Source: Chiloscyllium plagiosum (Eukaryota). Taken from it: a stretch of 20,000 nucleotides of DNA. The notes under the pieces are model-generated. The model saw only the letters and a list, made by a program, of their open reading frames with translations, searched no databases and was not told where the DNA came from. This document shows positions 2,958-20,000 of this stretch, in pieces. The DNA lies in NCBI RefSeq assembly GCF_004010195.1, contig NC_057759.1:4575735-4595734 (forward strand). Reading direction: 5' to 3'. A program made the translations under genes and the position numbers. Every line of letters begins with the position of its first letter. The first letter of the stretch is position 1.

Positions 2958-3299
2958 TCGCTCTCTGACTTACGATGAGTTTTAAAAACATACACCATCC
3001 TGACACAGTACAATGTCTAACAGCCATGCAGTTCCATTGATATTGCAAGTAACAGAAAATGTTAGATTCAAAATGATTTCTCCCCACAGATCCCTTGTCA
3101 GACAGGCCTACAGCTGGGCCTACAGCCCTTGAAAACTTATGAGTCAGCACCGATCAGAAGCAACCAGCTAACAATTTTCATCTTGATCAGCTAGCATCTG
3201 TTTGCCTAATTGTATCATGGTAACAGAGGAGCTGCCATCCCCATCTTTATCAAAACATTTCTTCACGTTGTAGGAGAAGACTTTGTTTTGTCTGTTTCA

Positions 3300-4465
3300 A
3301 GAGTGTGGTGCTGGAAAAGCTGAGCAGGTCAGGCAGCATCTGAGAAGCAGGAAAATCAAGGTTTTGGACAAAAGCCCTTCATTAGGAATGAGGCTGGGAG
3401 TCTTGGAGGTGGAGATATGAGTTGGAGGGAATTGGGGCTGGTGATAATTTAGCTGAGACTGCAACAGATGGGGGTAAAGGTCGGAGTGGAGGGTGGTGCT
3501 GATAGATGGAAAGGAAGATGGTCAGATGTGATAGGTCATGAGGACGGTGCTAAGCTTGAGGTTTGGAACTGGGGTTAGGTGGTGAATGGGAAATGAGGAA
3601 ACCGGTGAAGTCCACATTGATGTCATGGGGTTGGAGGGTCCTGAGGTGGAAGATGAGGCATTCTTCCTCCAGGTGTCAAGTGGTAAGGGAATGGCGATGG
3701 AGGAGGCCCAGGACCTGCATTCCTCAGCAGTGGGAGCGGTTAAGTGTTGGGCCATGGGTCGGTGGGGTTGGTGGGGTAGGTGTCTCAGATGTTCTCTGAA
3801 GCGCTCGGCGTCCCCAATGTCAAGGAGTTTGCATCGGGATCAGTGGATACAGTAAATGATGTGTGGAAGTGCAGGGGAAACATTGATGGATGTGGAAGGC
3901 TCCTTTGGGGCCTTGAACGGAGGTGAGGGGGGAGGTTTGGGCGCAGGTTTTGCAATTCCTGCTGTGGCATGGAAGGTGTCGGGACGGGACGGTGGGTTGC
4001 TGGGGGGCATGGACCTGACGAGGTAATCGTGGTTTGAGCAGTCTTTACGGAAAGCGGATGGGGTGGGGAGGGAAATATATCTCTGGTGATGGGATCCGTT
4101 CGTGGGTGGCGGAAATGGCGGAGGATGATGTGATGTATACAGAGGTTAGTGGGGTGGAATGTGAGGACCGGTGGGGGGGGGGGTTCTGTCCTTGTTCTGG
4201 TTGGAGGGGTGGGTTTCAAAGGCAGAGGGGCGTGAAATGGATGAAATGCACTGAAGGGCATCCTCAACCACGTGGGAGGAGAAATTGCAGTCTTTAAAGC
4301 GGGAGGCCATCTGGCGTGTTCTGTGATGGAACTGGTCCTCCTGGGAACAGATACGGTGGCGGTAGTGGAAGAATTGGGATAACGGACATTTTTGCAGGAG
4401 GAGGTGTACTCCAGGTAGGTGTGGGAGTTGGTGGGTTTGTATCATCTGCAGTACTCATTTTCGCC
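3300..4465 (-). mobile_element. 5'-truncated Penelope-like element (RT C-terminus, GIY-YIG, pLTR)
   Basis: Minus frames give SQFFHYRHRICSQEDQFHHRTRQMASRFKDCNF and LTFHPTNLCIHHIILRHFRH. The 3' terminus (3301-3390) matches the arms of the palindromes at 7888 and 11086, and ends with the ctgcagtactcattttc terminal motif. Confidence 0.8.
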
Positions 4466-6091
4466 TTTGTGTGTTTCAGTCCAACCAGAAACTTTGTTTT
4501 AGTTAGTTATGTACTACTTTTAAAATTTGTTGCAATTTACTACAAAGAGCTCTGCATTCCTCCTTCCTTTCCCTCGGATGTATCATGAAAAAAAAAGAAA
4601 TCTTGCTGCAATTTTCACAATGCATCAATGGAATCTAATAACCCTTCAAAGCAGTGGAGAAAGGGGGAGAAAAAAGTCAAAATTAGTAGGTTTATAAAAC
4701 TGTGCATTTTATTTTCAAGCAGAGCAGAAAGTGTTGATCATTCCATAAATTCAATTTGGCAGTTTACACATTTTGTACTGCATGACAAAAAAAAAAGCCT
4801 TTTTCCTTTCCTCCTTCCTACTATAGAGCAACGCAAGAGTACAGCATGCATCATCACACGACAGAGCAATGTAATATTCTGTCTACATCAGAAAATAGAA
4901 GTGAACGAGTCTGTACAAGGAACATTATGGTCAGTCAGCTCCAATGCAGTTGAATTGTTTGTCACCCTTTTACTTAGTTGCAAATGTTTACATAGATTGT
5001 TACTTCACCAAATTCATAAAAGAACATCACTATGCACTGAAACAAAAACTGATGGCTTTCTGACGACCAACATTTTATATCATTACTCTGTTAGATTCCG
5101 CATTGTACAAAATACAAAAAGTCTAATTGTTTTTCCTATCTTGACGCTGACGAACAGCATAGAATCCTTTCTGTTGCAGTGTGTTACGCTTTCACTTGCA
5201 CATGATTCCTACAGGCACTAACAATTAAAGAACTTCGGCTGTTTCAACACAGGAGACATGAACTGAGATACAGACTGGCAGCACAAGAGTAAACTCACTC
5301 TGACTCAGTCACTGGATGCTGAAAGGAAAAGAATAAATTTTGGCCTCTATTTCCAGATGTGAATTGACTCTCAACATCACTTATCACAGTTGAGGATATA
5401 CAGTGCCCAGCAGTGCCTGATAAAGTCTACTATACATGCACACACGCACAATGTAAAAATAAACAGACTGAAATGCAACACAATTAAGCATCATCGAAAA
5501 GAGTTTATTAACAGAGTTTATGCTACATTCAGACACAAACCGCAACTGAACATAGGTGAATGAGATCCAATGAACCCTCTCCAGAGCTTGAAGATCCTTC
5601 CTTAAGTAAGGTGACCAGAACTGAACACAAATGTGATCTGACCAACCAAGAACTACATTTATTAAAAGTCAGATGTCTACAGAATTGATGTCAAAGTGTG
5701 CTTTCCATATGGACACTGGCAATGAGTGGATGAAGTTCACATTCCCAACAATTACTGCAGAACTGATGTATAAGAGAATGTCCCAGTACAGACACAATGG
5801 GCTGAATGGTCTGTTTCTGAGCTGTACCATATCAGTGATTCTGATTTTGGTGAGAAAGGAGATGACATGCTGTCGTGTTACATATTGGTACAAAAAATAT
5901 CACACAGAAATGGACTGACATGCAGAATAAAAACACCAACAATGTCTGGGTACAAATTGAAACTAAATGTCTCAGTGGTACCACAGATCCCAGACTCTCT
6001 CCCCGAACAGGAAATGTGTGACCATAATTCAAAATGGTTCTCAGAATAAAGCAGTTTCCCTTCTGCCATTGAGGAACTACGTCCCCTCAAG

Positions 6092-6379
6092 AGATTACTT
6101 TACAGTGTGGAAACAGGCCCTTCGGCCCAACAAGTCCACACCGCCCCGCCGAAGCGCAAACCACCCAGACCCCTACATTTACCCCTTTACCTAACACTAC
6201 GGGCAATTTAGCATGGCCAATTCACCTGACCTGCACATCTTTGGACTGTGGGAGGAAACCGGAGCACCCGGAGGAAACCCACGCCGACACGGGAAGAACG
6301 TGCAAACTCCACACAGTCAGTCGCCTGAGGTGGGAATTGAACCCGGGTCTCTGGCGCTGTGAAGCAGCAGTGCTAACCA
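6092..6379 (-). mobile_element. HE1/V-SINE-type SINE (head slightly truncated)
   Basis: V-SINE core ggaggaaaccggagcacccggaggaaacccacg on + strand, B-box, LINE-like tail. Confidence 0.85.
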
Positions 6380-6598
6380 AGGGGCCTCTTGGTTCGATAT
6401 CGGTCAAATGAATCGACAAATGTGGTCTATTCATAAAGCAAGGTTCATTAATTCCTTGGATTAAGCTACCTTGACACAATTCTATCCAGCAACACAGAGA
6501 TTGAAGCTTCCGTGATCCGGGGTGAAGCTGCGCAATTACATTTATATGTTTTTCAATAAATAGTACAGCCTTAATTACAAGAAATACCAATCACATAT

Positions 6599-6745
6599 GG
6601 GCGGCACGGTGGCACAGCAGTTAGCACTGCTGCCTCACAGCGCCAGAGGCCCGGGTTCAATTCCCGCCTCAGGCGACTGACTGTGTGGAGTTTGCACGTT
6701 CTCCCCGTGTTTCCTCTTTCAACACTGTAAGTAATCTAATCTAAT
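6599..6745 (+). mobile_element. HE1/V-SINE-type SINE, internally deleted
   Basis: Head gggcggcacggtggcacag..gggttcaattccc, truncated core, joined directly to the tail acactgtaagtaatctaatctaat. Confidence 0.85.
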
Positions 6746-7124
6746 AACGTGACGTGATTTGCAGCAAGTTAAGAAGGATGTCTAATTTACGTACATTGTC
6801 ATGCCATATATTAGTTCAAGGTTAGTTCAAATGGTCAATTAATGTGTCAGTATTCATCTTATGAAAACTCTGTTGTCCTCTTATCTTTGAACTGCAAGTT
6901 AATTCTGCAAATCAGCAGTATGTTCAGCAATATGGTTTACAGGCTATTTTATAGCATTCTTTTAAATTGAGAAACCATTCTGAACAAATAAAAATCGACA
7001 TATTTTGTTGCCTAAATTCCAATTTTAGATCCTCATCCCCATCCCCATCTCACCCCTCCCCCTCACCCCCCCCCCCCACCCCCCTTGGCCATCTTATGAC
7101 CACACCATAAAGGTATAGATCAAA

Positions 7125-7887
7125 TCAATTCAATTCAACAGCAGCAAGAGACTGCCATAGTTCCTCTTCCTCCGAAGGGGAACTAAAGTCAGGCAATGGC
7201 GTTTCCTCGTCTTCATTTAAGTAAAGAAGCATTTTCAGATTGGAGCCAATGTTGTCAATAGAAATTAATGTTTTAGCAATAATACTCTTAGCTATAGCAA
7301 TGCTAACAAAAAGACAAATTGAAACAATAGCACCATACAAAGACATATTAAGTAATCAGTTGTACCATGAGCCAAACCCCAATCTTCCCATCCCACACCT
7401 TCGTTCATTTGGTTGACAAAAGTGTGAATATTATCAATATGTCTCGTAATGTTTTCGAAAGGATCAGTGACCCTCATAATGCATTTTCTTTTAACTATAA
7501 CGCAACATCCACCTTCCTTCACAAGCATGTAATCAGTTTTGTTGGGCAAATAGGCACAATTCTGAAAGCATTTCTAATTTCTATTAAGGTAGCAGTTGTC
7601 TCATTTCCCAAAATTGTGAGTCCACCAATGAGATAATTATGGGTTTTGATGACTAATAATTCTTAATGACTCTACTAATGAAAGAACACTAAGAGCTGCA
7701 TATGTCAATGAGTGTGTTTTACTTCTTGATATGGTCTTTGGATTCTTCTATTCTGTGCAAAAGTCAGGAGAAACTTTATGTTTAAAAGGGAAATTATGAT
7801 TTCATTGCCAGGTGATTGGACAGGGAACAGGAGTTGGAAATAGTGTTCCCACAGCTACGACTTGCTCTATTCAGGACAAGGTAGTTC
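7125..7887 (-). pseudogene. env: Endogenous viral envelope glycoprotein (class I fusion; SU C-terminus plus whole TM), filovirus-GP2/ASLV-like, frameshifted
   Basis: Joining minus frames gives VVAVGTLFPTPVPCP..FKHKVSPDFCTE*KNPKTISRSKTHSLTYAALSVLSLVESLRIISHQ / NYLIGGLTILGNETTATLIEIRN / LSELCLFAQQN / DYMLVKEGGCCVIVKRKCIMRVTDPFENITRHIDNIHTFVNQMNEGVGWEDWG / GSWYN*LLNMSLYGAIVSICLFVSIAIAKSII..EEEELWQSLAAVELN*. Uses ORFs 7292..7549 and 7125..7346. Confidence 0.85.
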
Positions 7888-8090
7888 GCTGAAAAATGTG
7901 TTGCTGGAAAAGCACAGCAGGTCAGGCAGCATCCAAGGAGCAGGAGAATCGACGTTTCGGGCATAAGCCCTTCTTCAGGTGCCCGAAACGTCGATTCTCC
8001 TGCTCCTTGGATGCTACCTGACCTGCTGCGCTTTTCCAGCAGCACATTTTTCAGCTCTGATCTCCAGCATCTGCAGTCCTCACTTTCTCC
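7888..8090. mobile_element. Palindromic Penelope terminal mini-element
   Basis: 76-bp inverted arms 7888-7963 and 7980-8055 (3 mismatches by eye). Minus-strand core ctgaagaagggcttatgcccgaaacgtc; ends with the PLE terminus ctgcagtcctcactttctcc. Confidence 0.85.
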
Positions 8091-8640
8091 GATAAAAAAG
8101 GAACACCACTCATCTAAATCTGAATTATCATTGTCGTCCTCATTAAAACTAAGGCCAACCATCGAATTGCGCAGTTCTGTTTGTTTACCAGTCACTTGTG
8201 ACTTCTCCTTGTGTTTCTGTATTTATTTTGCTCGAGCAATTCACTTTTAAGAACCTCAACAGACTTCATAGCACCATTTGCAGTTAATTCAATCCCCAAT
8301 TTGGTGGCAGTATCCTGCCACGAGCGCAAAACTGATTTTTTGTGCCTCTCATCACAAAACTGTCACAGTAGTCCAATTAACTCTTTCGTTCCCACTCCCA
8401 TGTTATGTTGCTAAATCAATTGCTGAGCTGATTTAACCAACTGAACAACTTAGGAACTCCTAATGATATTCTTCATCACCCAATGTTTTGTTTAGATTCC
8501 ATACAGTTTTCCAAAGGCCTCAGACCTTTCGGAAAATTTTCACATAATTTCACTAACGTTGATGAAATTACTCACGATCAATCTTCCACAGATGCTAATC
8601 AATTTCACAAACCTTTTTATTAAAAAAAACTTTCATTATA
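8091..8640 (-). pseudogene. Putative decayed retroviral gag N-terminus (matrix-like)
   Basis: Minus-strand frames with stops read ISSTLVKLCENFPK / LWKTVWNLNKTLGDEEY / VVQLVKSAQQLI*QHNMGVGTKELIGLL*QFCDERHKKSVLRSWQDTATKLGIEL. Helical-looking, same strand as and upstream of env. The identity is inferred mostly from position. Confidence 0.4.
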
Positions 8641-8693: not shown

Positions 8694-8930
8694 AAATACC
8701 AGGAACCTCTTGCTCCCTATAACTTCAAATATCAAGAGCCTCATGCCCCCTGTTACCTCAAATGCCAGGGGCCTCTTGCCCCCGTAACCTCAAATACCAG
8801 GGGTCTCTTACCCCCTGTAACATTAAATATCAAGGCCCTCTTGCCCCCTGTAACATCAAATTCCAGGGGTCTCTTGCCCCCTGTTACCTCAAATACCAGG
8901 GGCCTCTTGCCCCCTGTAACCCCAAATACG
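8694..8930. repeat. 33-bp minisatellite, ~7 copies
   Basis: Consensus aaataccaggggcctcttgccccctgtaacctc; units start at 8694, 8727, 8760 (32 bp), 8792, 8825, 8858 and 8891. Confidence 0.95.
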
Positions 8931-9914: not shown

Positions 9915-10360
9915 ATCGAAGTTTTTTCAATTAAAAAAAAACGAAGTTCAAACCGTTGCATTTTTGTTAAAACGATAAAAAAAACGAATTTCAAATGAAC
10001 GAAGTTTTTTTAAAGAAACGAAAACAGCCCCAGCCTGTTCAAACGGTCGGAGTTTTTTTTTAACAAAAATAATCGAAGTCCAAATAATCGGAGTTTTTTT
10101 TTATAAAAGCCGAAAATAAACGAAGATAAAATGACACGAACCCAAAAAAAAACGAGGTTAAAGCAGTCGGAGTTTTTTTAAATCGAGAAGTAACTAAGTT
10201 AACACAACCCGAACCCGAAAATAAATGACGTTTAAGCAATCAAAGTTTTTTTTTAAACAAGAAAGCACCGGAAAATAACAAATCTCGGGACATCGATTTT
10301 TTTTTTACTTCTGCAGTCAACGAAGCTCGGGAGAAAGAATTATTTTAAAACTAAAAATTA
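9915..10360. repeat. Degenerate A/T-tract tandem array with CpG-containing motifs
   Basis: Recurrent aaaaacgaag(t)tcaaa and tcggagttttttt motifs separated by A-runs and T-runs. Confidence 0.75.
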
Positions 10361-11052
10361 ACAAAGCTTGGGAATTCAGATTTCAACACTCCCCTCAGAG
10401 TTCAGCAATTTTCGAAGACCAATGTGGGATTTAGATAAAACACTGTTACTTAGAGTCATAGCGATGTACAAGCATGGAAACAGACCCTTTGGTCCAACCC
10501 GTCCATGCCGACCAGATATCCAAATCCAATCTAGTCCCACCTGCCAACACCCGGCCCATATTCCTCCGAACCCTTCCTATTCATATACACATCCAAATGC
10601 CTCTTAAATGGTGCAATTGTACGAGCCTCCACCACATCCTCGGGCAGCTCATTCCATACACGTACTACCCTCTGCGTGAAAAAGTTGTCCCTTAGGTCTC
10701 ATTTATATCTTTCCCCTCTCACCCCAAACCTCTAGTTCTGGACTCCCCGACCCCAGGGAAAACACTTTGTCTATTTATCCTATACATGCCCCTCATAATT
10801 TTGTAAACCTCTATAAGGTCACCCCTCAGCCTCCGACGCTCCAGGGAAAACAGCCCCAGCCTGTTCAGCTTCTCCCTGTAGCTTAGATCCTCCAACCCTG
10901 GCAACATCCTTGTAAATCTTTTCTGAACCTTTTCAAGTTTCACAACATCTTTCTGATAGGAAGGAGATCAGAATTGCACGCAGTATTCCAACAGTGGCCT
11001 AACCAATGTCCTGTACAGCCGCAACATGACTGCCCAACTCCTGTACTCAATA

Positions 11053-11279
11053 GGTAAAAACAATGACTGCAGATGCTGGAAACCAGATTCTGGATCAGTG
11101 GTGCTGGAAGAGCACAGCAATTCAGGCAGCATCCGACGAGCATCAAAATCTACGTTTCGGGCAAAAGCCCTTCATCAGGCATATTCCTGATGAAGGGCTT
11201 TTGCCCGAAACGTCGATTTTGATGCTCGTCGGATGCTGCCTGAATTGCTGTGCTCTTCCAGCACCACTGATCCAGAATC
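11053..11279. mobile_element. Palindromic Penelope mini-element with 12-bp TSD, inserted in the CR1
   Basis: 94-bp inverted arms 11086-11179 and 11186-11279 (1 mismatch), 6-nt loop; TSD ctgtactcaata at 11041-11052 and 11280-11291. Confidence 0.9.
11187..11214 (+). ncRNA. Minimal type I hammerhead ribozyme core (Penelope-associated)
   Basis: CTGATGA-A-GGGC TTTT GCCC-GAAA-CGTC, i.e. conserved core, stem II and GTC triplet. A mirror copy lies on the minus strand in the left arm with one substitution just 3' of GTC. Stem I pairing not verified. Confidence 0.65.
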
Positions 11280-11695
11280 CTGTACTCAATACTCCGACCA
11301 ATAAAGGGAAGCATACCAAATGCCTTCTTCACTACCTGAAGTCTCTCTACCTGCGACTCCACTTTCAATGAGCTATGAACCTGCACTCCAAGGTCTCTTT
11401 GTTCAGCAACACTCCCTAGGACCTTATCATTAAGTGAATAAGTCCTGCTAAGATTTGCTTTCCCAAAATGCAGCACCTCGCACTTATCTGAATTAAACTC
11501 CATCTGCCACTTCTCAGCCGATTGGCCCATCTGGTCCAGATCCTGTTGTAATCTGAGGTAACCCTCTTCACTGTCCACTACACCTCCAATTCTGGTGTAA
11601 TCTGCAAACTTACTAACTATACCTCTTATGCTTGCATCCAAATCCTTTATGCAAATGACAAAAAGTAGAGGGCCCAGCACCGATCCTTGTGGCAC

Positions 11696-12195
11696 NNNNN
11701 NNNNNNNNNNNNNNNNNNNNNNNNNNNNNNNNNNNNNNNNNNNNNNNNNNNNNNNNNNNNNNNNNNNNNNNNNNNNNNNNNNNNNNNNNNNNNNNNNNNN
11801 NNNNNNNNNNNNNNNNNNNNNNNNNNNNNNNNNNNNNNNNNNNNNNNNNNNNNNNNNNNNNNNNNNNNNNNNNNNNNNNNNNNNNNNNNNNNNNNNNNNN
11901 NNNNNNNNNNNNNNNNNNNNNNNNNNNNNNNNNNNNNNNNNNNNNNNNNNNNNNNNNNNNNNNNNNNNNNNNNNNNNNNNNNNNNNNNNNNNNNNNNNNN
12001 NNNNNNNNNNNNNNNNNNNNNNNNNNNNNNNNNNNNNNNNNNNNNNNNNNNNNNNNNNNNNNNNNNNNNNNNNNNNNNNNNNNNNNNNNNNNNNNNNNNN
12101 NNNNNNNNNNNNNNNNNNNNNNNNNNNNNNNNNNNNNNNNNNNNNNNNNNNNNNNNNNNNNNNNNNNNNNNNNNNNNNNNNNNNNNNNNNNNNNN
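11696..12195. other. Assembly gap (500 N)
   Basis: Run of N. Confidence 1.
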
Positions 12196-13531: not shown

Positions 13532-13620
13532 TAGGAGAAAGTGAGGACTGCAGGTGCTGAAGACCAGAGTTGAAAAATGTGATGCTGGAAAAACACATCA
13601 GGCCAGGCAGCATCCGAGGA
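13532..13620. mobile_element. Penelope terminal fragment
   Basis: ggagaaagtgaggactgcag..gaaaaatgtgatgctggaaaa..ggcagcatcc is the reverse complement of ~8005-8090. Confidence 0.75.
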
Positions 13621-13621
13621 G

Positions 13622-14905: not shown

Positions 14906-17340
14906 TGAAGCATCCTGATGAGAGGAGAGCAGTTGATGTGGTTTACATGCACTTCAGTCAGGCCTTTGTCGGAGCATAACCCCCAACCGGGGATGAAAGA
15001 CTCAGCAGGCAGGCAGTATTCAGGCAAGTGGTAGGAGGTTCGTGCAGGCAGACGGCCTCCGAGAGGACAAAAGACTGTCCTCCGAGACTGGCCTCAGAAC
15101 AGAGGTCTATGACACACTCTGATTTTACAATAAAAAGCAATATTTTTAATAAACTTTCTGATAACAATCACATACAACTTTATTACGATGTTCCTCTCTC
15201 TTACTTTGCATATCCTATTCAATGAGATACCTAATCAATGATGGGCATTTCTATGGACTGCCCCAGGATCCCCTGACCTCTCAGAGTTTAGCGGACATTG
15301 TAATCTCTTGGCTTTGTGATCTTTCTATGCATCCTATCATTCTTATTCCAAAGTTATGTGCGAAAAACCTTCAGGTTTCTCTCAGGCTAGCTTGTCTCTC
15401 AGGACAGTTTGAATGCTGTTATTCATTGTATTCCATTTTATCAAGTTCAATTGCTCCTCTGATATAATAGGGCAGTGGGGAATATATGAGGAAAAAACAA
15501 AGGACAGTTTGATTTGACTTACTTGCCATAGACTTGTAATTTTAATTTTTATTATAAAAAGTTAGTTACAAAGTGTGAAGTAATTTATTTGCCCCAACTG
15601 TTAGCACTTTGTGATTAATGGGCTGTGAGCAATCTATTGTGATCTGGGCATAAGAGAAGTCATTACCTAAAGTAACTAACCTTCACTTCCAGGTTTAAAT
15701 GCTTCTTTTCCCCTTTCTGCTTTAGTATTATGCACCTAGTTTTCATGCTGGAAACTGCCGAGTTAATGCTACGTCTCTTTACGAGAACCTAATTCTTAAT
15801 ATTCCAACTTATTTCAAGAAACTACATACTTTAAGATACCTTTAGCTGTTTTGGGCATTAATGGGCTGTAACTAGCACCTGGTGTCTGTTCAGTAACTGG
15901 GACAATTACCCTTTCATTTAATGTGGCTGGAGTTACTCATTTACCGGACCTTCGGTCTGCTTGTCAGAACTGTTTCAAATTGGAACAGGCTGGGTCCTTG
16001 GAATGGCTTTATCAATGGTATCATTTTACCTTATTGTGTGAGTGCGCTGTAAAGCTTAGATTCTGCCTGCCATTCTGTTTCACAAACTGCTGTTTAATTC
16101 TACTTTACACTTACATACCAGTTTGTGTTAACAGACATGGGCTACTCTATCTGGCCTGGTACAGGCCACCCCGAAGCCTTTGACAAAGTCCCATATAAAA
16201 GACTGGTCCAAGATTGGCACTTGGAGTCTTAAGCAAACTGGATCTGAAATGAGCTTGCAGACAGGATGCAAACTATGATGGTGGAAGGTTGTGTTTGTGA
16301 TTGGAAGCCTGTGACCAGTGGTGTATCACAGGGATCAGTGCTGGGACCCTTGCTGCTTGTTATGTAAATATTAACAATTGGATGTGAATGTATAATTAGT
16401 ATGCCTGCAGATGACTTTTTCATGTGGAAGTATTAAATGTTTCAGTGCAGTCTTGGTGTACAAAGGGCCTGTTTTGTGCTGTATTGTTCTTTGCTCTATG
16501 ACATGAAAGTTGGTGGTGTTGTTGACAGTGAGGGGGATGGTCTCAGGCTACAGTATGAGGACTTTGGGCACTGCAATGACAGATGGAATTTAATCCTGAT
16601 AAATGTGAGGTAATGCATTTTGGGAGGTCTAATAAGGGAAAGAATTACACAATGAAGGATTGGTCCCGAGGTAATACTGAGGAACAAAGGTACCTTGGTG
16701 TACAAGTCTATAGATCACAGAAGTGGTCAGCACAGGCAGACAGGCTGCTGAAGGCAGCATACAGAATGCTTCCCGGAGCTGTCAAATATAAGAGCAAGGA
16801 AGTCTTATTCCACATTTATAAAACAGATCAAATACTGTGTGCAGTTCTGATTGCCACACAATTAGAAGGATGGGATCGACTGGAGAGGATGCAGTGGGTT
16901 GGAAAGTCTCTGTTAAAAGGGGAGACCGTATGAGCTGGGTTTGGTTTCCTTGGAGCAGAGGACATTGAGGGAGGATCTGACTGAGATATACTAAATTATG
17001 CAAAATGCAGACAGAGTAGATTGTGAGAATCTTTCTCCCGTTAGTAGATGTGCCGAAGACCAGAGGGTAAAAGTTGAAGTTGTGGGGAAAGCAGTTTAGA
17101 GGATATCTGAGAAAAATATTTTGACCTAGCTGGTGGGTAAAGTTTGTAATATGCTGCCTGAGAGTGTGATGGAATACTCTCACAGCATTTAAGCAGCATC
17201 AGGATATGACCTAATGAAACCAGGGCATAGTCAGCTCTTGGCCAAGTGCAGATAAATAGGATGAATGCAGTTTTTGGTGTTTGTTGGACATCATGGACAT
17301 GGTAGGCTGAAGGGTCTGTTTCTATGCTGTATGACTCTAT
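14906..17340 (+). mobile_element. CR1 LINE RT region to 3' tail (old), split by a solo LTR
   Basis: DERRAVDVVYMHFSQAF continues after the LTR as AFDKVP; then VTSGVSQGSVLGPLL, MEFNPDKCEVMHFG (ORF 16583..16933), and the tail ctgtatgactctat at ~17327-17340. Confidence 0.85.
14967..16175. mobile_element. Long solo LTR (1209 bp) with perfect 5-bp TSD
   Basis: TSD gcctt at 14962-14966 and 16176-16180; ends tgtcgg..ccga(c)a. Removing it restores the CR1 motif aggcctttgacaaagtcc (AFDKVP). Confidence 0.8.
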
Positions 17341-17344
17341 ATCG

Positions 17345-17755
17345 CTATAACATCCTTGTAACTCTTTTCTGCAGCATCTAAAGTTTAACAACATCCTTCC
17401 TGGAGAAGGATGATGAGCGTTGTATGCAATCTCATAAGAATGGCATCACTTAATGTCCTGTACAGCCACCAGATGACATCCCAACTCCTACACGAAATGT
17501 TCCGACGAAGGAAGGAAAGCTTGCCAAACGCTTTCTTCACCGTCCTGTCTACCTGTGGCTCTACTTTCAAGAAGATCTCCCAGGTGCAATGGTTCAAGCT
17601 GCAACCCTCGGTCTCTTTGTTCAGCAACACTTGCCAAGGCCCCACCATTAAGTGTATAAGTCCTGCCCTGGTTTGTCTTAATCAAAATCTAACACCTCAC
17701 ATGTATCTAAATGTATCTGTATCTGTCACGTCTTGGCCCACTGACCTACATGATC
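17345..17755 (-). mobile_element. CR1 LINE fragment
   Basis: ORFs 17385..17648 and 17488..17685 read LKVEPQVDRTVKKAFGKLSF and TNQGRTYTLNG. Confidence 0.85.
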
Positions 17756-18665
17756 AATTGGTGAGCTGAAAGAAGACAGAGGGTGGTAGCTGATGGGAAA
17801 TGTTCATTCCTGGAGTTCAGTTACTGGTGGTGTACCGCAAGGATCTGTTTTGGGTGAGGGTGTAGAAAGATGGATTTGCAAATTTGTGGATGATACTAAC
17901 GTCAGTGGAGTTGCGGACAATGCTGAAGGTTGTTGCAGGTTACACAGGTACATAGATAAGCTGCAGAGTTGGGCTGCGAGGTGGCAAATGGAGTTTAATG
18001 TGGAAAAGTGTGAGATGATTCACTTTGGAAGGAGTACTGGTCTAATGGTAATGTTCTTGGTAGTGTAGATGAGCAGAGAGATCTCTGTGTACATGTACAT
18101 AGATCCTTGAAAGCTGCCACCCAAGTTGATAGGGTTGTTGAGACGGCATACGGTGGTTAGCTTTTATTGGGAGAGGGATTGAGTTTTGAAACCATGAGGT
18201 CATGCTGCAGCTCTACAAAACTCTGGTGTGGCCGCACTTGGAAAGTTGCATCCAGTTCTTGTCCCCACATTACAGTAAGGATGTGGAAGCTTTGGAAAGG
18301 GCTCATAGGTGATTTACTGGGCCGTTGCCTGGTCTGGATGGAATGTCTTATGAAGAAAGGCTGAGGGACATGAGGCTTCATTAGAGAGAAGAAGGTTGAG
18401 AAGTGACTTCATAGAGACACACAAAATAATCAGAGGGTTAGATAGTGTGGGCAGTGAGAGCCTTACTCCTCCGATGGTGATGGCTAGCACCAGTGGACAT
18501 CACTTTAAATTGAGGGACGATAAATATAAGACAGATGTCAGAGGTAGTTTCTTTACTCAGAGTAGTAGAGGCATGGAACGTTCTGCCTGGAACTGTAGTA
18601 GACTCACCAATTGTATGGACATTTAAATGCAATAGTATACTGCACTGTCATGTTCTATGTTCTAT
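17756..18665 (+). mobile_element. CR1 LINE RT C-terminus to 3' tail, internally deleted
   Basis: VTGGVPQGSVLG|EGVERWICKFVDDT..WQMEFNVEKCE (ORF 17793..18068); tail gttctatgttcta at ~18652-18664. Confidence 0.85.
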
Positions 18666-18671
18666 TATCTC

Positions 18672-20000
18672 ACTAAAGTGGAGCTTATTCAAGGAACAGC
18701 TACTGCGTGTCCTTGATTAGTATGTACCTGTCAGGCAGGGAGGAAGTGGATGAGTGAGGGAGCCGTGGTTTACTAAGGAAGTTGATCTCTTGTCAGGAGG
18801 AAGAAAGCTTATGTTACGATGAGATGTGAAGGCACAGTTAGGGCGCTCAGAGTTACAAGCTAGCCAGGAATGACCTAAAGAGAGAACTAAAAGGAGCCAG
18901 GAGGGGACAAGAGAAGTCTTTGGCAGACAGGATCAAAGAAAATCCTAAAGCTTTCTATAGCTATATCAGGAACAAAAGAATGACTAGAATTAGATTCGGG
19001 TCAATCATGGACAGGAGTGGGAAGTTGTGCATGGAGTCCTAGGAGATAGGAGAAGTGCAAAATGAATACTTTTTAAAATCGGTATTCACACTGGAAAAAG
19101 ACAATGTTGTCGACGAGAATACTGAGTTACAGGCTACTAGACTAGATGGGAGATAAGTTCACAAGGAGGACATTTAGCAATTCTGGAAAGTGTGTAAATA
19201 GATAACCCCCTGGGCCAGATGGGATTTATTCTAGGATTCTCTGGGAAGCCAGGGAGTAGATTGCAGAGCCTTGGGCTTTGATCTTTATGTCGTCATTGTC
19301 TACAGGAATAGTGCCAGAAGACCGGAAGATAGCAAATGTTGTCCGTTTGTTCAAGAAGGGGAATAGAGTCCACCCTGGTAATTACAGATCAGTGAGCCTT
19401 TCTTCGGTTGTGGATAAAATGTTGGAAAAGGCTAGAATAGACAGGATTTATAATCATCTCAATAGGAATAAGTTGATTAGAAATAGCCAATATGGTTTGT
19501 GAAGGGTAGGTCATGCCTCACAAATCTTATTGAGTTCTTTGAGAAGGTGACCAAACAGATGGAAGAGGGTAAAGCAGTTGATGCAGTGTATATGGATTTC
19601 AGTAAAGTGTTTGATTAGATGTTTTCAGTAAGGTTCCCAACTGTAGGCTATTGCACAAAATATGGAGGCATGGGATTGAGGGTGATTTAGCGGTTTGGTT
19701 CAGAAATTGGTGAGCTGAAAGAAGACAGAGGTTGGTAGCTGATGGGAAATGTTCATTCCTGGAGTTCAGTTACTAGTGGTGTACCGCAAGGATCTGTTTT
19801 GGGTGAGGGTGTAGAAAGATGGATTTGCAAATTTGTGGATGATACTAACGTCAGTGGAGTTGCGGACAATGCTGAAGGATGTTGCAGGTTACACAAGTAC
19901 ATAGATAAGCTGCAGAGTTGGGCTGAGAGGTGGCAAATGGAGTTTAATGTGGAAAAGTGTGAGATGATTCACTTTGGAAGGAGTACTGGTCTAATGGTAA
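18672..20000 (+). mobile_element. CR1 LINE ORF2 (tether plus RT), decayed, runs off the window
   Basis: IFMSSLSTGIVPEDRKIANVVRLFKKGNRVHPGNYRSVSLSSVVDKMLEK (ORF 19278..19502), then GRSCLTNLIEFFE and VDAVYMDFSK. Confidence 0.9.

Follow-up and report, generated by a model that had tools for sequence, protein, structure and literature searches.

Filovirus-like ectodomains have already been described in retroelements of cartilaginous fish, and the available text of Nino Barreat & Katzourakis 2024 (PMC11521997) gives 14 chondrichthyan loci with Amblyraja, Leucoraja, Scyliorhinus, Chiloscyllium, and Rhincodon as hosts. In the Bayesian tree presented there, the chondrichthyan ectodomains are sister to the GPs of Ebola, Marburg, Lloviu, and Mengla (PP 0.83), and Tapajos virus is placed with lizard elements, namely the Mabuya and Varanus Envs (PP 1). 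On NP, Tapajos virus goes with Marburg-like viruses, and the conflict with PMC11521997 is called unresolved in the accessible part of PMC11398700. Filovirus-like hits of this kind have also been filtered as ERV-derived (PMC11089739, in the sections available). The hallmarks of a gamma-type Env, as given in the available part of PMC9967133, are an ISD, a CX6CC motif that provides the SU-TM disulfide, and a CXXC motif in SU. According to the accessible text of bioRxiv 2021.11.23.469661, a cysteine-flanked internal fusion peptide characterizes the avian variant of this type, and 6 cartilaginous fish are among the hosts of the anamniote ERVs with a gamma-type env, which also include CXnC subtypes. 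A proximal domain common to retroviral SU and GP1 has been proposed as well (bioRxiv 2023.10.07.561363, as far as its available text goes).

The window analyzed here is a 20,000-nucleotide stretch of DNA from Chiloscyllium plagiosum, and its minus strand carries at 7125-7887 the 3′ half of an env gene, i.e., the last ~40 SU codons, a probable cleavage region, and the whole TM (the class I fusion subunit), ending at a TGA stop codon (7127-7125) directly after the acidic tail. Most of SU and the signal peptide are missing. Aligned to an unbroken sister stretch (L098:1063-1950), the remnant has 5 frameshifts (near 7864, 7639, 7574, 7535, and 7373) and 3 stops (near 7804, 7750, and 7358), and translation of 6900-8400 finds the env pieces spread over three minus-strand frames. 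The initial annotation had counted about four frameshifts, which is right for the part that it quoted, and the pieces that it had read there (NETT, the ISD, GG-C, NIT, the Trp-rich stretch, the TM helix, and the acidic tail) are indeed present on this strand in three frames. The internal fusion-loop region lies at 7624-7759 (minus strand), with its first Cys codon at 7759-7757; the second loop Cys position, 7626-7624, is not Cys in the window copy nor in 11 other copies of the 40 compared. HR1 with its NETT sequon (Asn codon 7605-7603), the ISD, and CX6C (7504-7481) follow at 7481-7640 (minus strand), and HR2 with its NIT sequon, the Trp-rich membrane-proximal stretch, the TM helix, and the acidic cytoplasmic tail take up 7125-7480 (minus strand). 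The window ISD is broken by the frameshifts near 7574 and 7535; in the sister copies it reads QNRxALDxxLxxxGG and is an ISD of the gamma type. The extra Cys of the window's GGCC is private to this copy, and the sister copies have GG-V/I-C. Public DNA run X1, which may come from the same sample as the window, yields a contig identical to it over 7144-7382, and the RNA run X21 (one sample, ~2% of the run) has no reads on 7090-7869 while covering the adjacent hairpin repeat. The window copy has no protein function now.

By sequence comparison, the likeness of the predicted window product to filovirus GP2 exceeds chance. When aligned to 7125-7887 by tblastn, Marburg GP reaches 40.4 bits (0/192 shuffles with a hit as high, 200 made) and Mengla GP 31.6 bits (0/198, 200 made); Tapajos GP is not significant against the broken copy, with 12/197 shuffles as high. 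The 93-aa open piece at 7292-7573 ranks 33 filovirus GP2 entries and the CAS GP2 above any retroviral TM in the PDB, although weakly (best E 0.012), and Pfam gives no match to any of 7 single-frame window pieces, this one included. When an unbroken 296-aa sister stretch is used in place of the window copy, the first 33 PDB rows are all filovirus GP (best E 2.9e-13), followed by syncytin-2 (2e-7), CAS virus GP2 (4e-5), ASLV TM (0.015), and MLV p15E (0.04). The ebolavirus GP2 string given for comparison in the initial annotation agrees with the PDB chains. Pfam PF22307 and PF00429 are found on unbroken sister stretches, where the TLV_coat scores are 24.1 and 27.1 bits against a cut-off of 22.5 and the best Ebola-like_HR1-HR2 score is 27.1 bits against one of 27, so the proposed check for a class I TM profile did return hits, about at the cut-offs. 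Word-index homologue searches with two sister stretches found no match. An unfiltered profile search found 449 proteins at E<=0.001, and the best 150 of these were examined. The top matches are chondrichthyan proteins from Heterodontus, Mobula, Pristiophorus, and Hemiscyllium, to which a separate search adds Rhincodon, and these nearest named homologues bear out the cartilaginous-fish host that had been surmised. Among the best 150 of 449, the best non-shark match is Tapajos virus GP at rank 15 (E 2.6e-19), with Mengla GP at rank 44, Marburg GP at rank 57, and many ordinary Envs above both. One database record calls for care: P0186 (ALT19595.1) is labeled 'GP [Zaire ebolavirus]' but falls into one 90% cluster with Marburg GP and has the start and TM of Marburg; a table in the available text of PMC11521997 gives ALT19595.1 as a Zaire best hit.

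The cysteines provide characters beyond the ranking of hits. One of them is a Cys exactly 34 residues before the 'LD' of the ISD, with a partner 38-49 residues further up. Among the listed matches with a readable motif, this Cys at -34 sets the shark clade, Marburg, Mengla, Sudan, Tapajos, and five lizard-type Envs apart from all others, two of which have a lone Cys at -35. For the pair, the shark clade has a spacing of 40-44, Tapajos one of 38, and Marburg and Mengla one of 45, and in the 40 copies compared the first loop Cys is present in 35 and the second in 28. The loop is thus flanked by a Cys pair in the manner of the avian-variant and filovirus-type internal fusion loop, the disulfide itself being predicted. 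Each Cys of CX6C is present in 39/40 copies, and a third Cys after CX6C in 0/40; it is also absent from the database relatives and, among the listed matches, from Tapajos GP and four lizard-type Envs. Ebola and Marburg have CX6CC. The third cysteine of filovirus GP2 links GP2 to GP1. The likeness to GP2 put forward in the initial annotation is overstated in this respect, the cysteine being absent from the shark Env. Likewise, the HR1 sequon that it stressed is present, but such sequons are common among non-mammalian gamma-type Envs according to the accessible part of PMC9967133. In SU we find no CXXC of the gammaretroviral form, and a single Cys (C-Y) stands there in 11/11 shark-clade proteins examined. 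As judged from these motifs, the shark Env fails two defining tests of a canonical gamma-type Env, the third TM Cys and the SU CXXC.

Outside HR1-HR2, the likeness takes another direction. The cleavage site of the window family is K-R and not the canonical RXXR. SU has no match in Pfam or the PDB, is retrovirus-like by ESM features (TLV_coat 0.95, Avian_gp85 0.92), and does not match the GP1 of Marburg or Mengla by sequence (4/100 and 24/100 shuffles as high). A profile of the SU end plus the loop matches a lizard-type Env at 19.4 bits and Tapajos at 14.9 bits (0/300 shuffles each), with Mengla and Marburg GP at chance. Nearness to the filovirus lineage, as had been suggested, is thus seen in HR1-HR2, but beyond it the affinity is to Tapajos and lizard-type Envs and not to Marburg or Mengla GP. 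The structure prediction that had been called for yielded no usable model of SU or the loop. In the AlphaFold model of a sister stretch (mean pLDDT 47.1), the TM helix is the sole well-predicted part, and neither there nor in a second AlphaFold model (pLDDT 40.3) do SU and the fusion loop have a confident fold, so the loop disulfide and the cleavage site are placed by motif position. A Foldseek search returned EAV-HP Env first (E 7e-4), but with TM-scores of ~0.1 on the pLDDT 40.3 model, and we rejected it as evidence of fold. As a separate observation, the env subfamily of the window has an extra Cys-containing N-terminal SU region of ~150 residues (P0001, P0011, L112:6583-7242), which precedes the common SU start motif and is missing from the ~465-aa sister Envs and from Tapajos GP. 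It could be a separate receptor-binding domain.

The surroundings of env are those of a retrovirus. A DNA search for the family gave 271 candidates, 40 of them scored, with long matches at 80-91% identity, and a protein search gave 907 candidates, of which 150 were scored; the set compared consists of 39 env-bearing stretches (up to 10 kb each) and 20 flanks. Pairs of ~650-bp LTRs (TG...CA) enclose 7 sister elements, with K2P distances of 0.027, 0.040, 0.055, 0.083, 0.100, 0.106, and 0.153, and an exact 4-bp target duplication is seen in 4 of these 7 and none exact in the other 3. After the 5′ LTR comes a primer site complementary to the 3′ end of tRNA-His, the first 12/12 bases of which match the genomic tRNA-His in L050, L115, L122, and L123. 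Pieces of pol precede env in line in 5/39 loci, and in L095, L103, and L113 the order is RT, RNase H, integrase, and then env, above the Pfam cut-offs; the best RT match is MLV/XMRV (E 1e-28), ahead of foamy virus (5e-18) and HERV-K (1e-12). We assign the env to a class I ERV because of the LTR pairs, the tRNA-His primer site, the pol in front of the same env, and the RT nearest to MLV, and these sister copies support the endogenous retroviral env that had been proposed from the window alone. The provirus in the window is very probably a defunct copy, with an internal deletion, from a class I ERV family (MLV-like RT; gamma/epsilon group) of a cartilaginous fish. No filovirus gene array (NP, VP35, VP40, L) surrounds env, which is flanked instead by gag, pol, PPT, and LTR. 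Two further features were noted in sister stretches. Just before RT, L103:4939-5535 (plus strand) has two H-x-T motifs that fit a 2H phosphoesterase domain, with no Pfam match, and some family copies are nested in or adjoin other ERVs with pol or gag pieces (L109; L038:1-634).

The window copy retains the leader repeats, the gag start, the env end, the PPT, and the 3′ LTR, all on the minus strand. Downstream of env, the polypurine tract at 7036-7087 has grown into a G-rich run (a short PPT stands directly before the LTR in L038, L040, and L053), and the 3′ LTR occupies 6070-7035, with TG at 7035 and CA at 6071-6070; it is ~650 bp in sister copies and is split in the window by two SINE-like repeats at about 6599-6768 and 6092-6379. 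On the other side of env, a high-copy hairpin repeat (an inverted repeat, 7888-8093) sits at the junction of an internal deletion of ~5.5-6 kb, with a 4-base microhomology between repeat and env at 7887/7888, and the distance from gag to env is 206 bases compared with 5.7-6.3 kb in 6 sister copies. Rfam gives only sub-threshold miRNA matches to the hairpin repeat. Beyond it lies the broken 5′ end of gag at 8094-8401, with a Met-Gly start at 8401; it is colinear with the gag start of the pol-bearing L103, has no Pfam match, and owes its name to position. A 33-bp tandem leader array (7.2 copies) occupies 8694-8929, and the leader near the primer site lies at 9915-10425, with a ~43-bp repeat array at 9934-10260, followed by a LINE fragment. 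The primer site and 5′ LTR are absent from the window and the next 20 kb. The 33-bp array reaches up to ~8 kb in other copies (G000:C2:26512169-26520969, C101976, C11), and the ~43-bp array at 9934-10260 has GTTCRA-like cores.

Many copies of the family have no pol. A shared filler is found in 24/39 loci, none of them pol-bearing, and 10/39 have neither filler nor pol within the stretch. This filler, ~4 kb long, replaces most of gag and pol (e.g., L053:3600-7900), is absent from the window, and has 538 candidates in the genome; it carries a SINE at one shared position, and parts of it read like decayed coding sequence. None of its 55 open segments matches Pfam, and its read-throughs have no match in Pfam or the PDB. 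The ISD frameshift of the window is shared by 19/20 of the nearest copies and 0/19 of the others, and other breaks of the window env (two frameshifts and two stops) recur in 11, 9, 14, and 11 of these 20, which were chosen by similarity to the window, a choice that favors shared breaks. The env of the window's pol-less subfamily was already dead before the subfamily multiplied. Since these copies have no pol and a dead env yet keep LTRs and the primer site, helper proteins supplied in trans would be the simplest account, and the family may serve as an example of a pol-less, env-dead subfamily spreading in this way. The dN/dS ratio is 0.74-0.78 among young copies compared with 0.29-0.38 between deep lineages. 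For L097, L098, and L105 compared with L036-L055, the env dS to these three older pol-less copies is 0.69-1.09, and their shared filler differs by 0.16-0.21. We considered selection on env within the pol-less lineage and rejected it because the env dS far exceeds the filler divergence, an excess suggestive of env exchange between the pol-less element and different helper viruses. At the published shark pedigree mutation rate of 7e-10 per generation (PMC10587355), the youngest LTR pair would be ~2e7 generations old and the oldest impossibly ancient; we therefore rejected absolute dating and compare ages in relative terms.

To place the shark Env, we used a tree of 121 columns with 52 of 120 usable rows, 39 having been dropped for motif or length; it is built without reptarenavirus, ASLV, or MLV sequences and without the Mabuya and Varanus Envs nearest Tapajos. 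The shark Env clade forms one branch (97/86), Tapajos GP joins it (94/55), and Ebola, Sudan, Marburg, and Mengla join shark plus Tapajos (90/87), with the lizard-type Envs outside. None of 4 alternative groupings is rejected by AU tests (p 0.31, 0.22, 0.27, and 0.29), the first of these being shark plus mammalian filovirus, as in the published tree. A tree had been proposed as a check; the present one returns the shark and filovirus grouping but leaves its alternatives standing. Together with the PDB ranking and the -34 Cys, it agrees with the extra affinity to filovirus GP2 that had been claimed; this affinity is supported, not strongly, and the tree cannot order the members of the group. It is conceivable, but doubtful, that the shark Env clade, Tapajos GP, and Ebola/Marburg GP2 are one lineage and that filoviruses captured their glycoprotein once and not, as published, twice. 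We raise this because the best tree unites all three at 90/87, the AU test leaves a single filovirus origin standing (p 0.22), and Tapajos virus goes with Marburg-like viruses on NP (PMC11398700). Against it, the rival groupings are likewise not rejected (AU p 0.27-0.31), the Mabuya and Varanus Envs, which the published tree puts beside Tapajos (PP 1), are missing from our set, and the lizard-type Env exceeds Tapajos on the SU-end profile. If it were true, Tapajos GP would have stayed a whole retroviral Env with little alteration (SU start motif, SU end, cysteine-closed loop, no SU-TM disulfide), Ebola/Marburg GP would be a remodeled descendant with a new GP1 face, and the ancestral form of the Ebola spike would be best represented, in structural terms, by natural shark Envs.

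The nearest known system is the group of PMC11521997, with which the family shares its cartilaginous-fish host, the position of env in an LTR element, and a grouping with mammalian filovirus GP2; in both, HR1-HR2 is Ebola-like and filovirus or Tapajos GP gives the best match. Judged by these shared traits and by a compatible tree built without their 14 loci, the env family probably belongs to this published chondrichthyan filovirus-like group, and the locus is another example of it and not a discovery; the novelty first attached to it has largely been anticipated, the same inference with a Bayesian tree being already in the available text of PMC11521997. In its accessible sections, that text deals with the ectodomain only and is silent on the absence of a third Cys, the cysteines of the fusion loop, a family of hundreds of copies, and a pol-less subfamily. 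Filovirus GP2 shares with the shark Env the Cys 34 residues before the ISD, the HR1 sequon, the ISD, CX6C, the NIT in HR2, the Trp-rich stretch, and a similar loop spacing (45 in Marburg and Mengla, 40-44 in the shark clade); it differs in having CX6CC where the shark Env has CX6C-I. The shark Env, in turn, shows no detected GP1 or mucin-like region, has no profile match to filoviruses in the loop and SU end, and stands in a retroviral context. Tapajos virus GP (Tapjovirus, from a snake; 461 aa) is like the shark Env in having both loop cysteines and no third Cys; its hhalign match reaches the SU end (186 columns, 99%, compared with 128 columns for Mengla), and its SU start motif N-x-F-x3-H...C-Y is similar to the shark's, weakly (7/300 shuffles), but it has CX7C and is the glycoprotein of a negative-strand RNA virus. 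ASLV-type and lizard Envs (Mabuya Env-Mab3, an Anolis ERV) share the Cys-flanked fusion peptide, the ISD, and the absence of an SU CXXC, whereas ASLV and Mab3 keep the CX6CC whose third Cys the shark Env lacks; the family pol is class I (MLV-like) and not alpharetroviral as in ASLV, the TM of which matches far lower (E 0.015). With the anamniote ERV set, the family shares a shark class I pol with a gamma-type env and a CXnC variant. A literature search on the fusion loop in elasmobranch ERVs, with subscription journals mostly outside its scope, found no paper.

How far the filovirus ranking can be trusted bears on whether this is simply an ordinary fish gamma-type env that ranks with filoviruses as an artifact of a PDB rich in Ebola GP. 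The many Envs above Mengla and Marburg in the profile search, the AU result that keeps a tree with mammalian filoviruses outside shark, Tapajos, and lizard (p 0.29), and the mere 121 columns of the tree all fit such a reading. We nonetheless consider it unlikely, given that the Cys at -34 is common to filoviruses and absent from ordinary Envs among the listed matches, that the best tree joins shark and filovirus at 90/87, and that the published tree, in its available form, concurs (PP 0.83, PMC11521997). The opposite extreme would be an endogenised filovirus GP gene, in which the mRNA of a shark filovirus was copied into the genome and later amplified, as the 33 top PDB matches of the unbroken sister stretch and the 90/87 branch of shark, Tapajos, and mammalian filoviruses might indicate. 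But env sits between IN and the PPT and LTR of a class I provirus, its SU resembles retroviral SU and leaves Marburg and Mengla GP1 unmatched, its ISD is of the retroviral QNRxALD type, and such hits are also called ERV-derived in the accessible part of PMC11089739. The genomic context has already largely refuted this origin, which we regard as highly improbable.

The transfer could also have run in reverse, an ancient shark retrovirus having captured an early filovirus GP as its env; the trees are unrooted at the shark-filovirus node, and among the listed readable matches none but filoviruses, Tapajos, the shark clade, and 5 lizard-type Envs has the loop Cys pair. This is very unlikely in our estimation: the fish filoviruses are without the ectodomain (PMC11521997, available text), SU is retrovirus-like, and the presence of the loop in lizard ERV Envs and the ASLV-type variant makes the type older and wider in retroviruses (bioRxiv 2021.11.23.469661, available text). 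Finally, we give next to no credence to a host-domesticated env, whether syncytin-like or a restriction factor. Relatives in other sharks are labeled 'syncytin-1-like', but these database names are automatic, and against the deep dN/dS below 1 stand the 8 disabling breaks of the window copy, its loss of most of SU and the signal peptide, and the empty RNA coverage of 7090-7869 in the part of run X21 that was read. Domestication is refuted for the window locus.

For the preferred reading, a class I ERV env of the published chondrichthyan group, we infer a course of events from the motifs and from established class I fusion chemistry. The ancestral Env would have been a trimer, a class I fusion protein with an internal fusion loop, and its cleavage at a basic site would have fallen 5-7 residues ahead of the first loop cysteine. 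This cysteine would pair with the second at the start of HR1 and so close the hydrophobic loop, as in filovirus GP2 and ASLV TM, and HR1, the ISD, CX6C, and HR2 would then fold into a six-helix bundle. With neither the SU CXXC nor the third TM cysteine present, SU would stay attached by means other than the usual SU-TM disulfide. A derivative element would then have lost most of gag and pol, carrying the ~4 kb of filler, and its env would already have been broken when helper proteins supplied in trans copied it many times, with integration producing the 4-bp duplications seen in sister copies. The window copy would afterward have shed a further ~5.7 kb at the hairpin repeat as well as its 5′ LTR, and SINEs would have inserted into it.

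Where the retrovirus-like fusion protein of the Ebola type came from has been asked since 1996, and by the published work the donor's relatives are best sought among shark ERVs. As a dead, truncated copy, the locus alone adds little. The family contributes more: its copies run to hundreds in a single genome, it has relatives in both sharks and rays, and it offers two motif characters for tree building, the loop closed by cysteines and the combined lack of an SU CXXC and a third TM Cys. With these, one versus two captures of the filovirus GP can be tested by computation.

Several other elements lie near env in the window. The hairpin repeat belongs to a family of very high copy number, with members at 7888-8093, 11086-11279, 3299-3396, and 13534-13621; that at 11086-11279 is a near-perfect palindrome with 97-bp arms, and that at 7888-8093 is heavily covered by X21 RNA reads, probably from other copies. 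Further retrotransposon fragments with RT-like ORFs, which we take to be Penelope-like and CR1/L2-like, are found at 3300-4450 (minus strand), 10480-11600, 16580-16930, and 17750-20000, and a 296-bp stretch at 17756 is repeated at 19705 with 98% identity. An assembly gap falls at about 11690-12190. Near one env-bearing copy elsewhere in the genome, L108:3-863 (minus strand) has a 287-aa open frame that reads like a seven-transmembrane receptor.
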